Positions 3,891-56,135 of a stretch of DNA of 64,000 nucleotides are shown in pieces (positions within the stretch are counted from its first letter, which is position 1; every line of letters begins with the position of its first letter). The DNA comes from a virus. A program made the translations under genes and the position numbers. The stretch covers positions 32,001 through 96,000 of the IMG/VR virus record IMGVR_UViG_3300044959_000237; one strand, 5' to 3'. The notes below the pieces were generated by a model. The model did no database searches, was not told where the DNA came from, and saw only the letters and a program-made list of their open reading frames with translations.

Positions 3891-4289
3891 CTATTCGATA
3901 GATACGGGTTTTGAAATCAACTTGAAATAAGCTTTTTCTCTGTCTTCGAAGGTTTTGAACAAAATAACAATTTCCAGAGTATCGTCATTTTTTTCATCGT
4001 AAACAATCGTTTTATATAAAGTCAAGATTGGCAAAATTACATTTTCATAATTGAATTCGTATATTTCTTTTTTCAAAATAAAAGTTATACCATACTCGTA
4101 TGATTTTTTTTCCATTGAAAATGTTTCGAAAAATTTTTTCATGTTTCCATAATTTTCAGATTCATCATCAATGTCATCTTCATTTTCGATAAAAGTTATT
4201 TTTATCGACCAGAATTTCGATGAAATATCGGAAAGTTTTTCGAGCAAATTCGACATTTTATCGAATCTAACTTCGATTTTCAATTTCAA
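3891..4289 (-). CDS. hypothetical protein
   Basis: 132-aa ORF, 4-bp overlap with the upstream gene. Confidence 0.6.
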   Translation of the reverse strand: MKLKIEVRFDKMSNLLEKLSDISSKFWSIKITFIENEDDIDDESENYGNMKKFFETFSMEKKSYEYGITFILKKEIYEFNYENVILPILTLYKTIVYDEKNDDTLEIVILFKTFEDREKAYFKLISKPVSIE

Positions 4290-4546
4290 TCCATAATAGA
4301 TTCGACGATATCGATAATGTTTTTTTCTTCTTCGAGTAGCAACATGTTGTTTTTGTTTTTGACAGTAAACATGACACGAATTGTTTTTCTGAGAATTTTT
4401 TTACTCAATCCGGTTTCCTCTTCGATTTTTTTAATCTCTTCGCTGAGATTTTCTCTCAATTCCTTGATTTGTTCCAAAGTATCAATTCCATATTTTACAA
4501 GTGAACGAACTTTCTCGATCTGAGTATTGTTGAGAACTTCATTCAT
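4286..4546 (-). CDS. T4 DsbA-like small dsDNA-binding protein
   Basis: 86-aa helical protein with pattern EEIKKIEEETGLSKKILRKTIR; strong SD GGGAG; own sigma70 promoter. Confidence 0.55.
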   Translation of the reverse strand: MNEVLNNTQIEKVRSLVKYGIDTLEQIKELRENLSEEIKKIEEETGLSKKILRKTIRVMFTVKNKNNMLLLEEEKNIIDIVESIMD

Positions 4547-10622: not shown

Positions 10623-10661
10623 AAAAAAAAAGGAGGAAGATGTAAATTACATCTTCCTCCT
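10623..10661 (-). terminator. rho-independent terminator
   Basis: Inverted repeat AGGAGGAAGATGTAA/TTACATCTTCCTCCT followed by a U-tract on the minus strand, just after 10687..11094. Confidence 0.8.
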
Positions 10662-27199: not shown

Positions 27200-28237
27200 T
27201 CATTTTGAAAATTTTTCTCGAATTATAAGATCGATAATTCCATTTTCGTTCCTGTTGTATTCTTTTTCGTAATACTTGTGTTCATTTCCTTGCAAATCGA
27301 CGTACAGGTATTTGTTTCCATTTTTCGTTACAATATTTTCTTTCAACAGAATGTCGAAAAATCCGGAATATGGATCCATTCCGGTATTGAAGGGAATTTT
27401 GATTTCAACTTCTCTGAAAGGTTTGGTAAATCTTGTTTTCATGACTTTACATTTTGTTCTTACACCAAATACTTCGGATGTTTTATTACCGTCTTCGTCT
27501 TCTTTCAGCTTCCATTTTTTCATTGCCACCACAATAGAAGAAGCATAAATGAATCCCTGTCCGCCAGATATTTTATCTTCTGGATCGAAAATATCCTGCG
27601 AAGCATAAGTATGATTTGTTGCCACGAGACCTATATCGAGATTACCAAATTTATTCACACAATTTCTTACCAAAGAAGTCAAAGCTTTAGCTTTTCTTCC
27701 CATATCACCTTTCATGTCTCCTTTTTCGAATTGCTCCACCTCCGATTTTGTAAGTAACATTCCGAGAGAATCGATGACAAACAGAAGCTTTGGTTTTTGT
27801 TCTTCACTCTTGTCATGATATTTTTCAGTGTAATCATGAACGATTCCATATATTATTTTCGATACATCATCGACAAGAGAAACATTTACCTTGAACAGTT
27901 TGGATTCATCGACAGATACACCCAATTTGATCAACCATTTTTCATCCAAAGCATTTTCCGAATCCAGAATGATGCAGAAAGCTCCCTGTTTTTGTGCTTC
28001 TCTTACAATATTTCCTGCTGCGATGTAACTTTTTCCAGACCCGCTTTCACCAGCAAAGACCACTACTTTGCCCAAAGGAACTCCTTTCATTGGATCTCCG
28101 GAAATTATGTAATTCAATGCATAATTGCCAGTGCTTATCCAATGTTTCGGATCATTGAAACCCAAAGATGCAGATTCTGTTTTGTTTATTATCTTTTCTA
28201 TTTTCGACAAATCGAAAGGCATATTTGTTGGCGACAT
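27200..28237 (-). CDS. uvsX: RecA-like recombinase UvsX
   Basis: ISTGNYALN, Walker A GESGSGKS, DSENA, IDSLG, TNHTY, SGGQG; ATG 28237 after SD GGGAG. Confidence 0.93.
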   Translation of the reverse strand: MSPTNMPFDLSKIEKIINKTESASLGFNDPKHWISTGNYALNYIISGDPMKGVPLGKVVVFAGESGSGKSYIAAGNIVREAQKQGAFCIILDSENALDEKWLIKLGVSVDESKLFKVNVSLVDDVSKIIYGIVHDYTEKYHDKSEEQKPKLLFVIDSLGMLLTKSEVEQFEKGDMKGDMGRKAKALTSLVRNCVNKFGNLDIGLVATNHTYASQDIFDPEDKISGGQGFIYASSIVVAMKKWKLKEDEDGNKTSEVFGVRTKCKVMKTRFTKPFREVEIKIPFNTGMDPYSGFFDILLKENIVTKNGNKYLYVDLQGNEHKYYEKEYNRNENGIIDLIIREKFSK

Positions 28238-28283
28238 TTCGGTCTCCCTTTTCTGCTGATTGAAAAACATGGGAAAAACATGG

Positions 28284-28317
28284 AAAAGGTTGCACTGCAA
28301 TCAATTGCAGTGCAACC
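28284..28317 (-). terminator. rho-independent terminator after ssb
   Basis: Perfect 14-bp stem GGTTGCACTGCAAT/ATTGCAGTGCAACC followed by UUUU on the minus strand. Confidence 0.75.
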
Positions 28318-32989: not shown

Positions 32990-33058
32990 GACAAAAAACC
33001 TTTTTCTTTCTATTTATTATTCAAACCAATAAATATTTCAAACAAGATCGACAAAACG

Positions 33059-37214: not shown

Positions 37215-37277
37215 TGTGAAAAACCTTCGATTTTTTATTTCTATTTATTTTCCGGTGACAATTTTCATAATATGATG

Positions 37278-38678: not shown

Positions 38679-38882
38679 TCAAAAAATCGAATGATTTTTT
38701 CAATTGCAATGATTTTTTTCGGTTTTTGTTTTCGATTCAGAATCAGAAAAAACGGAACTCGATTCTTCATTGTATTGTAATTTTCCCATGAAATGAAATC
38801 CTTTTACTTTTTATTTATTGACAGTAAATTTCATATTCGTTTGCAAATTTGCAAAAATATGACAAGTCGAAAAAAAAAGAAT

Positions 38883-39707
38883 TCAAGATTTCGGTATCGT
38901 AATGTATTTTACACCATTCATGGCAACTCGATTTTTGCCGGAAATTTTCGTAATAATCAAATTATCATCCAGAAATGGCTCTAAACAAACAAAAATTATG
39001 AATTCTTCGGTGAATCTCAAAAGTTCGTAATTCAATAGTGGTAAATCGTTGATCAACGATGTTGGTGTTTCGTTGTTTCTACACCATCTTGGATGAGTTA
39101 CTTTGAATTTTTCATTCTTTTCTTCTATGAAAGGTTGAAAAATTTTCAGAATTCCACTTTTTCCATTAGGATGTTCGGAAGCATTTCTTCTCATTATTAT
39201 TTCTGAAAATGTATCTTCATGTTTTTGTATCAAATCATAACGAAAATCACTTTTACCAAATTTTTTGTACATCCATTTTCTTATTGGAGATATACCATCT
39301 TTTGCTTTGGAAAAAGCACTTCCATCAGTAAAATTTTCATTCCAGACAGAATTGAAACAATACAATAAAAGATCACGTAAAATATTTTTGAAAGTATACA
39401 AATAAAGATTGACATCTTTACGAAGACCCAGAATGCTGGGAAAATAATTGCTCTTGTTGTTCATCCAGATATTCAGGGAAGAAAAATATTCATCATTGAT
39501 TTTTTCTTGTATATCCCAGAGAACTTCGAAATTCATCAATCCTTCGAGAAAACAGAAAGTCAGAATACTGTTCTTGCTTTCCTTGTCGATTTTGTTGCAA
39601 TTATTCAGAATGTTCAAATTCTGAACGGCAATTCTCGAAAATACAGGATGATTGACAGTCAATTTTGTGTATTTTTGATCAAGATTGATTGTTTCGAACA
39701 AATTCAT
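38883..39707 (-). CDS. hypothetical protein
   Basis: 274-aa ORF overlapping the tilS 3' end. Confidence 0.65.
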   Translation of the reverse strand: MNLFETINLDQKYTKLTVNHPVFSRIAVQNLNILNNCNKIDKESKNSILTFCFLEGLMNFEVLWDIQEKINDEYFSSLNIWMNNKSNYFPSILGLRKDVNLYLYTFKNILRDLLLYCFNSVWNENFTDGSAFSKAKDGISPIRKWMYKKFGKSDFRYDLIQKHEDTFSEIIMRRNASEHPNGKSGILKIFQPFIEEKNEKFKVTHPRWCRNNETPTSLINDLPLLNYELLRFTEEFIIFVCLEPFLDDNLIITKISGKNRVAMNGVKYITIPKS

Positions 39708-40587
39708 CGAAACTGAACTTTCCTCTTCTATTGTAAATTCTGTCGATAAAAATCATATCTTTTTTCGCGATTCTGTAATTTCTTTTTTTACACAGAAAAA
39801 CAACCATGTTTTTGAATCGAATCGAACTGATACCATTGTCAATCAATTCTTTTGTTTCGATAATATTGTCTTCTTTGAAATATTTAATCAAATCCTCCTT
39901 TGCAAGTTCTTCGGCCAGCTCATTGAGTTCATCGATACTTTTCAAAGCATGAACAATTTTCTTGTTGAAACAAGGAAATCTGGTGTTTGCCTTTTTGATG
40001 AAAAATCTGAACCAATTTCTATCATATTTTTCAATGTCGTAATTGCTCGGATCTTCAATATAAGACAAATTGTTTTCCTTACAATAGGAAAGAATCTGTT
40101 CTTTCGTTGCTTTCAGAACAGGATGATAAATTTCGAGAATTTTTCCATTATCGGTTTCGATCACACTTTTGTTTTTGATTTTGTAATTTTCTGGTTTTCT
40201 GGATCTCAACAAAGAAATGAAAAAGTTCTCTACATTGTCATTCATATGATGAGCAAGAACAATATGATCGGAAATCGATGCAAAAAAGTTCATTCGAAAT
40301 TTTCTTGCCTCGAATTCCAAATTTTTGGAAATTTTTCTGTCAATTCGACATGAAATGAAATTCACTTGAAAAGATTCCGCATATTTTTTACAAATTTGTT
40401 CCCATTCATTGGATCGGGAATTGATTCCATGATTTACATGAACTGCAACCAAATTATTCAAATGAAGTTTGAATTTCATGAAATGAAGCAGACAGACACT
40501 ATCGCTTCCTCCAGAAAAACCAACATGAATTTTTTCTTTCTTTTTCAATTCTCTCAAAACTTCGGTGTCGAACAATTTCCTACGCAT
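39679..40587 (-). CDS. tilS: tRNA(Ile)-lysidine synthetase (compact form)
   Basis: PP-loop SGGSDS, VHVNHG, EFEARKFR, AHHMNDNVE, DPSN, RNWFR. Confidence 0.88.
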   Translation of the reverse strand: MRRKLFDTEVLRELKKKEKIHVGFSGGSDSVCLLHFMKFKLHLNNLVAVHVNHGINSRSNEWEQICKKYAESFQVNFISCRIDRKISKNLEFEARKFRMNFFASISDHIVLAHHMNDNVENFFISLLRSRKPENYKIKNKSVIETDNGKILEIYHPVLKATKEQILSYCKENNLSYIEDPSNYDIEKYDRNWFRFFIKKANTRFPCFNKKIVHALKSIDELNELAEELAKEDLIKYFKEDNIIETKELIDNGISSIRFKNMVVFLCKKRNYRIAKKDMIFIDRIYNRRGKFSFDEFVRNNQS

Positions 40588-40642
40588 ACTATCTATCCTT
40601 CTCCCGGAAAAAGATAGTATGCGTAGTATGAAAATTTGTCAA
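40580..40642 (-). promoter_or_regulatory. sigma70 promoter overlapping a 15-bp inverted repeat that includes the tilS start codon
   Basis: TTGACA(40642-40637)-17-TACTAT(40619-40614); arms 40580-40594 and 40612-40626. Confidence 0.75.
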
Positions 40643-40680
40643 GCGTTGTCACAATGTTTTTCTACTTTTCGAATTTTTTT

Positions 40681-41547
40681 TCAGATTCGAAGATTTATTG
40701 GCATTCGAAAATTCACTTCTTCGCTGTTTTTTCCTTCTTTTTCGAACCATTCGTTCGCTATTTCGACAAATTTGTTCAGGCACAAACAATCCCACAAATA
40801 TGGATATTGTTCCCTGTTTCTGTATTTTTCATCGATCATGGAAAATATAGGTCCAAGTCCCAAAGTATAATGATATGCAATTGGATGTATTCTGTTTTCA
40901 TCATGTTCGTCGACAACTACCGGAGCATTTGTTTCCTTGTGATATCGAACCAGATCATCGTAATCATAACCATTTTCCTTGTCCAACCAATTGAATGTAA
41001 GTGGCAATTCACCAATTTCACTATCATCCAACCACGAAAATCGATGGAACCACGCTCCATTTCTATCAGGATTGTTCATGGTTGTCGGATTCAAGATTCT
41101 CAAAGATGGATGAGAATTGTTGTAAAGTATGCACGAAGACCAGTTTTTTCTGGGATAGATATGTTGTTTCTGACCATCCATTTTCATTTCCAATGGTCGG
41201 GGTGTATAATCATGTTTGCAGACCATGACTGCTTTTGTCGAATCGGCATAATCCATGATTTTGGTTACATCATCCATGAAAAGAAAATCGCAATCTACAA
41301 AAAGAGACCATCCTTCGTAATTCGACAAATAAGGAACCCAAAATCTGGTAAAAGTGAATTCGGTAGAACCCTGAGTATCTATCGGTCTTCGATAAATTCC
41401 CAATTCTCGCATTTCCTTTTGTTTCAACGGATAAACTTCGACGTTGTCGAATTTGTTTTTTCTCAAAATGGAATATTTTGCTACTTCATAAGCTAAAGAT
41501 TCTCTTCGATCATACCCTATGTATACTGTGAGTTTTTTGTTTTTCAT
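40681..41547 (-). CDS. GT-A fold glycosyltransferase (GT8-related)
   Basis: YIGYD.RE, STEFTFTRF, DCD (DxD), YPRKNWSS, HYT.G; SD AAGGAG before ATG 41547. Confidence 0.85.
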   Translation of the reverse strand: MKNKKLTVYIGYDRRESLAYEVAKYSILRKNKFDNVEVYPLKQKEMRELGIYRRPIDTQGSTEFTFTRFWVPYLSNYEGWSLFVDCDFLFMDDVTKIMDYADSTKAVMVCKHDYTPRPLEMKMDGQKQHIYPRKNWSSCILYNNSHPSLRILNPTTMNNPDRNGAWFHRFSWLDDSEIGELPLTFNWLDKENGYDYDDLVRYHKETNAPVVVDEHDENRIHPIAYHYTLGLGPIFSMIDEKYRNREQYPYLWDCLCLNKFVEIANEWFEKEGKNSEEVNFRMPINLRI

Positions 41548-41609
41548 TTTTTTCTCCTTTGTAAACACTTTGTAAACACTTCGCATTTTAAATTCTGTTT
41601 TTCTTTTTA

Positions 41610-42326
41610 TCAAGAAAATTTGAATGGATTACTCAAAAATATTTTATCGTTCATGGAATATTTTATCGAACAGTGAATATGTCCGTTTATGAATTTTCTG
41701 GCAGAGGAATATTTCAAAATATGCGAATTGTCACTTGTTGAAAAAGCATTTTGTGGATTGTTGAAATCGATAATTTTCAAATAAGGTTCTTTTATCAAGG
41801 GAAAATGTGTAGCTACAACATGACACTCTTCATTTACAATTTTTTCTATGCACTTTTCATGATAATTTTTCATCCATGAAGGTGTAATCAATTTTCCATT
41901 ATCATAAACTCTCTTGAATTCTCTTCTTGTTTTCTTCAAATAATCGAAATTGGTGAATTTTGTTGCTGTCCAGTTCAGAAAAGCAATTGAACCGTAAATT
42001 TTACAATTTTTGATTTTTACAATTTCATTTTCCAAAAAAAGAACTTTGTCGTTGAATTCTTTTTCGAGAGTTTTTGTCAAAATATTGAAATCCTTGTTCA
42101 ATATATCATGATTTCCCAAAATGAATATGACTTGTCTTTTTGCAATTTTTTTTATCGTATCGAAAAAGTTCATCAAATCGTCCGTTGTTCCGACAAAATA
42201 ATCTCCACAAAATATCGTGATATCGGCATCTTTCAGAAGAATTTCTTTCAAGATTTCTTTGAACAACAAAATTTCTCTTTTTGTCGATTTATCGAGATGA
42301 ATATCACTTATGAATCTTATTATCAT
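41610..42326 (-). CDS. calcineurin-like metallophosphoesterase
   Basis: SDIH, CGD, GNHD, THF, GHIH. Confidence 0.88.
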   Translation of the reverse strand: MIIRFISDIHLDKSTKREILLFKEILKEILLKDADITIFCGDYFVGTTDDLMNFFDTIKKIAKRQVIFILGNHDILNKDFNILTKTLEKEFNDKVLFLENEIVKIKNCKIYGSIAFLNWTATKFTNFDYLKKTRREFKRVYDNGKLITPSWMKNYHEKCIEKIVNEECHVVATHFPLIKEPYLKIIDFNNPQNAFSTSDNSHILKYSSARKFINGHIHCSIKYSMNDKIFLSNPFKFS

Positions 42327-55290: not shown

Positions 55291-55313
55291 TATTTATCTA
55301 TCTCATATAAATA
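55291..55313. promoter_or_regulatory. back-to-back T4-late-like promoters
   Basis: ATAAATA on minus (55291-55297, toward spoVR) and TATAAATA on plus (55306-55313, toward lysozyme). Confidence 0.6.
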
Positions 55314-55790: not shown

Positions 55791-56135
55791 TTACTTTCTG
55801 AATACAATTTGATATTCGACACCATCGACAGTAAAGTTGTACAGCTGTCCATCAGCAGATAGAGTATTTTCCAAAATTGGATTCCCTGGTGCAAAAACCA
55901 ATGCAGTTGTCGGTGTTGTAATCAAATTGACCGGGAAAGTACTTCCTTGAATCAAAAAGTTTGCACTTGCAACTTCCATTATGACTTTATTGACAACATC
56001 TGAACTTACAATAGTATACGTAGTTTCACTTGTAACGAATATTTCTACATATGGAGCGTTATTGTACAACCAAGATCCTCTTGAAGGAAAAATTTCCAAA
56101 CTTGAAAATTTTTTGAAATGACCTTTCAATATCAT
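55791..56135 (-). CDS. probable virion structural protein
   Basis: Thr/Val-rich 114 aa; SD GGGAG; TATAAATA upstream. Confidence 0.55.
   Translation of the reverse strand: MILKGHFKKFSSLEIFPSRGSWLYNNAPYVEIFVTSETTYTIVSSDVVNKVIMEVASANFLIQGSTFPVNLITTPTTALVFAPGNPILENTLSADGQLYNFTVDGVEYQIVFRK

Follow-up and report, generated by a model that had tools for sequence, protein, structure and literature searches.

Genes at the Locus

The locus lies in a window of 64,000 nucleotides, which is the whole stretch of DNA that was analysed (positions 32,001-96,000 of the virus record IMGVR_UViG_3300044959_000237). Coordinates are those of the window, except where G000:C1, or C1 for short, denotes the whole contig. 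The contig is 111,268 bp long with a G+C content of 32%. The features of the locus are listed in Table 1.

The central gene resembles tilS. Its product scores 144.4 bits against the NCBIfam model of the TilS N-domain (TIGR02432, cutoff 93.6) and matches PF01171 at 1.9e-41. Close relatives of the protein are P0001, P0002, and P0003, with 94%, 53%, and 48% identity. In an alignment of the product with these homologues (A1), the SGGxDS motif is invariant, and the start of tilS agrees with theirs. The substrate-binding and C-terminal tRNA-binding domains (PF09179 and PF11734) were not found in the 302-residue protein, which reaches 116 bits with the full-length TilS model NF007942, where the cutoff is 606. 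Short forms of TilS occur in some bacteria, so it is plausible that this N-domain-only protein is an active lysidine synthetase.

In the long ORFs, ATA codons are as common as ATT codons (34.3 versus 36.2 per 1000). No tRNA-Ile(CAU) was found on the contig, which carries tRNAs for Glu, Ala, Gly, Ser (two), and Thr. The ATA frequency and the absence of this tRNA are both consistent with a use for TilS. ARAGORN also reports a candidate permuted tmRNA at C1:2923-3249.

Sequence searches of Pfam, NCBIfam, and PDB gave no match for the ORF upstream of tilS. It matches phrog_28018, for which no function is annotated, and in the ESM Atlas its neighbours are glycosyltransferases, with a score of 0.98 and TM values of 0.73-0.78 over the query. 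As a lead only, it may encode a GT8-like glycosyltransferase, and it is called GT8-like below. Its real start is probably at residue 23 (ATG near 41547), where the ESM Atlas record begins.

The ORF that overlaps the 3' end of tilS has no family match in Pfam, NCBIfam, or PHROG, and no relatives in IMG/VR. It is probably co-expressed with tilS. A late-type ATAAATA word lies downstream of it, at 38818-38812.

Table 1. Coordinates of genes and sequence elements at and around the tilS start (window numbering).
Feature	Position	Strand	Source or remark
Upstream co-oriented ORF, 310 aa, presumed read-through source	40681-41613	minus	stop codon 40683-40681, 54 nt before the 5' arm
-35-like hexamer TTGACA	40642-40637	minus	sequence; consensus scan; begins 39 nt past the stop codon of the upstream gene
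Hairpin 5' arm CTACGCATACTATCT (also given as CUACGCAUACUAUCU)	40626-40612	minus	sequence; repeat search
-10-like hexamer TACTAT, wholly inside the 5' arm	40619-40614	minus	sequence; consensus scan; 17 nt from the -35 hexamer
Hairpin loop, 17 nt, includes GGGAGAAGGA	40611-40595	minus	sequence
GGGAG in the loop	40605-40601	minus	13 nt 5' of the ATG
AAGGA ribosome site in the loop, best spacing	40600-40596	minus	8 nt 5' of the ATG
Hairpin 3' arm AGATAGTATGCGTAG (also given as AGAUAGUAUGCGUAG), ATG inside	40594-40580	minus	sequence; repeat search
tilS ATG, within the 3' arm	40587-40585	minus	sequence
tilS-like gene, 302 aa, PP-loop N-domain only	39679-40587	minus	PF01171, TIGR02432
ORF of 274 aa, 29-nt overlap with the tilS 3' end	38883-39707	minus	ORF list
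ATAAATA examples	37242-37248, 38812-38818, 55291-55313, 33020-33050		word count

Phage Context and Relatives

The phage has a T4-type large terminase, with 43-47% identity to the terminases of PA5oct, Phosso, XaC1, and Atu_ph07, which are jumbo phages. The dominant intergenic word is ATAAATA, with 20 occurrences versus 2.2 expected. In the gaps that were read, it stands roughly 15-45 nt before start codons, often in divergent pairs set back to back, which make inverted repeats. From its sequence and placement, it is probably the late promoter of the phage, similar to that of T4.

On the minus strand, no ATAAATA occurs between 55291 and 38818; the nearest copies are at 55297-55291 upstream and 38818-38812 downstream. 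A block of roughly 14 kb that appears to be non-late, and that includes DNA polymerase, thus has tilS at its end.

Relatives of the locus were sought in several collections. Megablast of the locus against phages (INPHARED) gave no match, and tblastn of TilS against the same collection gave only matches of at most 32% identity. IMG/VR scans with the TilS protein and with alignment A1 gave no match, and JGI metagenome and GTDB scans returned only cellular TilS of about 30% identity. A search of IMG/VR for exact copies of the hairpin arms found 79 single matches, as by chance for 15-mers, and none with both arms.

Homologues with 48% identity to the GT8-like protein are found on five IMG/VR contigs, none of which carries tilS. 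The CheckV completeness of these contigs is 4-24% (the 24% belongs to an 88-kb contig), so they come from very large phages.

A Hairpin over the Start Codon

The tilS start lies within a perfect inverted repeat. The 3' arm spans positions -7 to +8 of the start codon, and thus contains the AUG and the seven nucleotides before it. An independent repeat search recovered the same pair of arms (I15, 15 nt, 100% complementary). The protein P0001 starts with MRK instead of the MRR seen here, so at its locus the outermost pair, C40626-G40580, must have been lost or compensated.

The 47-nt hairpin has a predicted folding energy of -25.4 kcal/mol and a z-score of -6.7, and none of 200 shuffles was as good; its 101-nt context has a z-score of -5.2. 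Among 135 gene starts, tilS has the most stable window from -55 to +18, at -29.1 kcal/mol compared with a mean of -9.2 (sd 5.0). With a 100-nt leader present, the accessibility of its initiation region is the second-lowest of 134 genes. Perfect 15-bp inverted repeats with loops of 3-60 nt number two in the genome, versus 0.13 per dinucleotide shuffle. By its fold z-scores, its rank among gene starts, and the rarity of such repeats, the hairpin at the tilS start is real and exceptional.

Both strands of the element are equally palindromic. Because the repeat is perfect and has no G-U pairs, an RNA helix and a DNA palindrome look the same in the sequence.

The hairpin was also compared with known kinds of element. 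A curated RNA family was rejected, since Rfam 15 gave only matches to generic miRNA-precursor hairpins (23 and 20.5 bits), far below the gathering scores of 99 and 140. Promoter-early stem-loop (PeSL) cassettes of T4-type phages, a subject of Arbiol et al. in 2010, reportedly occur as several near-identical intergenic copies per genome. In the 111-kb contig, beyond the hairpin's own two arms, the nearest copy of an arm differs at 3 positions and all others at 4. The hairpin is therefore single-copy, and the reading as a repeated element or PeSL cassette was rejected. Mimicry of a tRNA anticodon arm for TilS autoregulation was dropped on inspection of the sequence, since the hairpin has no 7-nt CAU loop.

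A Promoter-Like Site within the Hairpin

A promoter-like site, TTGACA-17-TACTAT, overlaps the hairpin. It matches 10 of the 12 positions of the sigma70 consensus TTGACA/TATAAT, which was used for scoring and may not be that of the host. The -35 hexamer is perfect and the spacer optimal, and the -10 hexamer has T-12, A-11, and T-7. Taken alone, the match is statistically weak. Sigma70-like matches of at least 9/12 number 76 in the 14-kb region, where 62 ± 8 are expected, which is barely an enrichment in AT-rich DNA. Intergenic TTGACA occurs 15 times versus 8.7 expected.

At the usual distance of 6-8 nt past the -10 box, transcription is predicted to start at about 40608-40604 (near 40607), within the loop. 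Because the -10 box sits in the 5' arm, RNAs started locally would begin in the loop and lack that arm. The 10/12 consensus match suggests both an active promoter and this start site. A weaker overlapping match, GTGACA-16-CATACT, would place the start inside the 5' arm.

The initial annotation had described a perfect 15-bp hairpin with a 17-nt loop that contains the Shine-Dalgarno sequence, an AUG in the 3' arm, and a TTGACA-17-TACTAT promoter with its -10 box in the 5' arm. The sequence, the repeat search (for the hairpin), and the consensus scan (for the promoter) place each of these elements exactly as it said.

Long and Short Leaders

The two kinds of leader behave differently when modelled with ViennaRNA. 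In three long leaders that include the 5' arm, the AUG is paired with a probability of 1.00 and is unpaired with a probability of 0.00. Leaders started at 40608-40604 fold with only -3 to -6 kcal/mol, and the AUG is unpaired with a probability of 0.71-0.93. In RNAs modelled from the start that GTGACA-16-CATACT would give, the probability of being unpaired is 0.9 for the AUG and 0.00-0.22 for the AAGGA ribosome site.

The genome holds 17 pairs of a sigma70-like promoter and a gene. Among these, tilS is a clear outlier in masking, with a modelled accessibility of 0.14 for the long leader versus 0.63 for the short one.

Other Structured Sites

A weaker site of the same layout is found at 4601-4546 on the minus strand. 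It has the hexamers TTGACA-17-TATTCT and a 10-bp stem, UUCUUCUUUU / AAAAGGGAGAA, with a folding energy of -8.8 kcal/mol and a z-score of -2.7. The stem pairs the -10 hexamer and a pyrimidine tract (5' arm) with the ribosome site AAGGGAGAA (3' arm) of an 86-residue ORF at 4286-4546. The predicted transcription start falls in the loop.

At G000:C1:108347-111268, three consecutive minus-strand genes each stand behind a repeated leader of GATATTTTCCGGAA-like units. The leader measures about 83 nt in front of the first two genes and is longer, 182 nt to the contig end, in front of the third. These leaders are predicted to pair with the start codons at -18 to -25 kcal/mol.

A perfect 14-bp hairpin at 28288-28317, GGTTGCACTGCAAT / ATTGCAGTGCAACC, overlaps the TTG at which ORF 27200-28300 is listed to start. 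The hairpin probably serves as a terminator or for processing, and the ORF probably has its real start further downstream.

At 10631-10661, a perfect 15-bp hairpin rich in G+A is followed by a T-run, which makes a clear intrinsic terminator. ATAAATA comes directly after it, before a gene of 796 residues.

A Proposed Translational Lock

The reading we favour, at a probability of about 0.5, is that the full arrangement is a translation-initiation lock keyed to the promoter within it. The model draws on the layout of the site and on the predicted folds. In this model, RNA coming in from the GT8-like gene upstream would have both arms and form the 15-bp hairpin of about -25 kcal/mol. The hairpin would bury the tilS AUG and the seven nucleotides 5' of it, and a small helix within the loop would also tie up the AAGGA ribosome site. 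With the AUG buried and AAGGA paired, ribosomes should not initiate on read-through RNA. A ribosome that terminates on the upstream gene would be of no help, because its stop codon, 54 nt 5' of the hairpin, is too distant for it to melt the stem.

RNAs from the sigma70-type promoter, on the other hand, would start near 40607. They would have a leader of about 20 nt, with the ribosome site and AUG open, and would be translated. TilS would be made only when the embedded promoter fires, insulated from upstream transcription. The overlapping 274-residue ORF would probably likewise be made only from this promoter.

One requirement of the model is that RNA from the upstream gene runs into tilS. The context is compatible with this: the genes are co-oriented and separated by a 93-nt gap, and two scans found no terminator-like site between them.

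The initial annotation had already proposed a switch between long and short leaders. The geometry and the modelled accessibility agree with it, whereas promoter activity, start site, and read-through are inferred, as are the size of the translational effect and its temporal (early) meaning. The annotation had further proposed that the lock restricts tilS to early expression, which does not follow from the layout. Since the late-type ATAAATA is absent for 14 kb upstream on the tilS strand, read-through RNAs would themselves be mostly early or middle.

A true temporal gate is a tentative extension, and a rather doubtful one. In this scenario, TilS and the 274-residue ORF would be made solely from a promoter read by host sigma70, within minutes of the onset of infection. 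This would raise the capacity for lysidine-tRNA-Ile before ATA-rich genes are translated, and transcripts that sweep through later would be silent for tilS. On this view, the weaker site with the same layout at 4601-4546 would suggest that insulating early promoters is a general strategy of this uncultured, probably jumbo, phage of the T4 superfamily.

If the lock is confirmed, tilS would form its own unit of expression, autonomous and insulated, within a long block of co-oriented genes. This would bear on the prediction of operons and timing classes when only a phage sequence is at hand. The element is also small (about 65 bp) and clean, and may serve as a compact part for "translate only from this promoter" designs.

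Alternative Explanations

The alternative that survives best, though it is unlikely, is a leader hairpin that is always present. Here, all tilS mRNAs would start 5' of the 5' arm, and TTGACA-17-TACTAT would be a chance match or one not read by the host. TilS would either be kept low or depend on an opener acting in trans, such as RNase III-type cleavage, a helicase, an RNA-binding protein, or temperature. The stability of the hairpin and the burial of the AUG are robust, and they suit this explanation; so does the lack of a significant enrichment of promoter-like matches in the region. In addition, the loop shows a single-stranded GGGAG, a type of site cut by some T4-type nucleases. RegB, for instance, cuts GGAG (PMC3014915). 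The difficulty is that a message with a -25 kcal/mol hairpin and a fully paired AUG would hardly be translated at all. Such silence would be odd, given that the gene is intact and is conserved in P0001-P0003. A perfect -35 hexamer, an optimal spacing, and a start that falls exactly in the loop would also be an unlikely coincidence. Moreover, no alternative promoter stands out when the 54 nt between the upstream stop codon and the hairpin are read.

The element could instead act as DNA. A dimeric or tetrameric repressor, of the phage or the host, might bind the 15-17-15 palindrome over the -10 box and start site, and so keep the tilS promoter off. A perfect inverted repeat that overlaps both the -10 box and +1, with equally palindromic strands, is what such an operator might look like, and an arm look-alike (12/15) overlaps the -10 box of another match, TTGACA-16-TAGTAT, at 56009-56023. 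This candidate half-site, CAATAGTATACGTAG on the plus strand, was nevertheless judged to be chance: it lies inside ORF 55791-56135, has no partner arm, and is within the 0.38 matches expected per shuffle. Apart from it, there are no half-sites with at most 3 mismatches in 111 kb. Arms of 15 bp set 17 bp apart are unlike typical operators, and the 3' arm falls exactly on -7 to +8 of the start codon, which is expected of an RNA-level role but not needed for a DNA site. Overall, an operator is improbable.

There is a similarly small chance that the hairpin serves the upstream message. It might be a 3'-end stabiliser, a processing site, or a U-less terminator for the mRNA of the GT8-like gene, with its overlap of tilS being secondary. 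Stable hairpins shield the 3' ends of RNA from exonucleases, and this one lies 54 nt past the upstream stop codon. It has no U-run, though, and was not called terminator-like, and the clear terminators of the genome, such as the one with a T-run at 10631-10661, look different. Even if the hairpin had such a 3'-end role, it would still bury the tilS AUG, so the translational effect would not be removed. An ordinary intrinsic (rho-independent) terminator was rejected, since the stem is followed by GAAAUUGUUCGAC, with no U-run, and neither scan listed it.

Comparison with Known Systems

The promoter-keyed lock proposed for tilS has close counterparts in T4. The genes e (lysozyme), soc, 49, and I-TevI have an inhibitory hairpin over the initiation region, and a late promoter lies in the DNA of its 5' strand (PMC3014915). 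The embedded promoter, TATAAATA, is read by gp55 and delays translation until late in infection, which has been proven experimentally (PMC3014915). The initial annotation had named e, soc, and I-TevI as precedents; the literature bears this out and adds gene 49.

As in these genes, the ribosome site and AUG of tilS would be sequestered on upstream RNAs, and the putative promoter lies in the DNA of the 5' strand. The phage of the window also belongs to the T4 terminase lineage. Unlike the T4 cases, the embedded site of tilS is of the sigma70 type, and its role is a predicted one. The late-promoter feature of the T4 type is absent, as neither ATAAATA nor TATAAATA occurs in 40580-40680.

The initial annotation had set a sigma70 version of this mechanism apart from the late promoters of T4. 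Hairpin masking with a promoter that is not late already has precedents, however, in IS10 and sigG. In IS10, the RNA from the sigma70 promoter pIN starts inside an inverted repeat, whereas RNAs initiated outside carry both repeats, which hide the start of translation. IS50 is comparable to IS10 in this fold-back inhibition. For IS10/Tn10, the inhibition of externally initiated transcripts is attributed to Davis, Simons & Kleckner (1985, Cell 43:379) in PMC13181058. By analogy with IS10, the lock at tilS would combine a start inside an inverted repeat, a sigma70-type promoter, and insulation from external transcription. The difference lies in what is guarded. In IS10 and IS50 it is a transposase gene at an insertion-sequence end, whereas tilS is a TilS N-domain gene among phage genes with no sign of an IS.

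In Bacillus subtilis sigG, a large hairpin blocks only the transcript that reads through from spoIIG (PMC5942855). The architecture proposed for tilS would be analogous, in that only promoter-proximal transcripts could be translated. Unlike tilS, sigG is a developmental gene of a cell; its promoter is of the sigma-F/G type and its helix, which is longer, has at least 20 pairs. The two genes share no homology.

Most documented cases of this kind of masking come from IS elements, sigG, and a handful of T4 late genes. If confirmed, tilS would add an example from the T4 superfamily in which the embedded promoter is not a late one.
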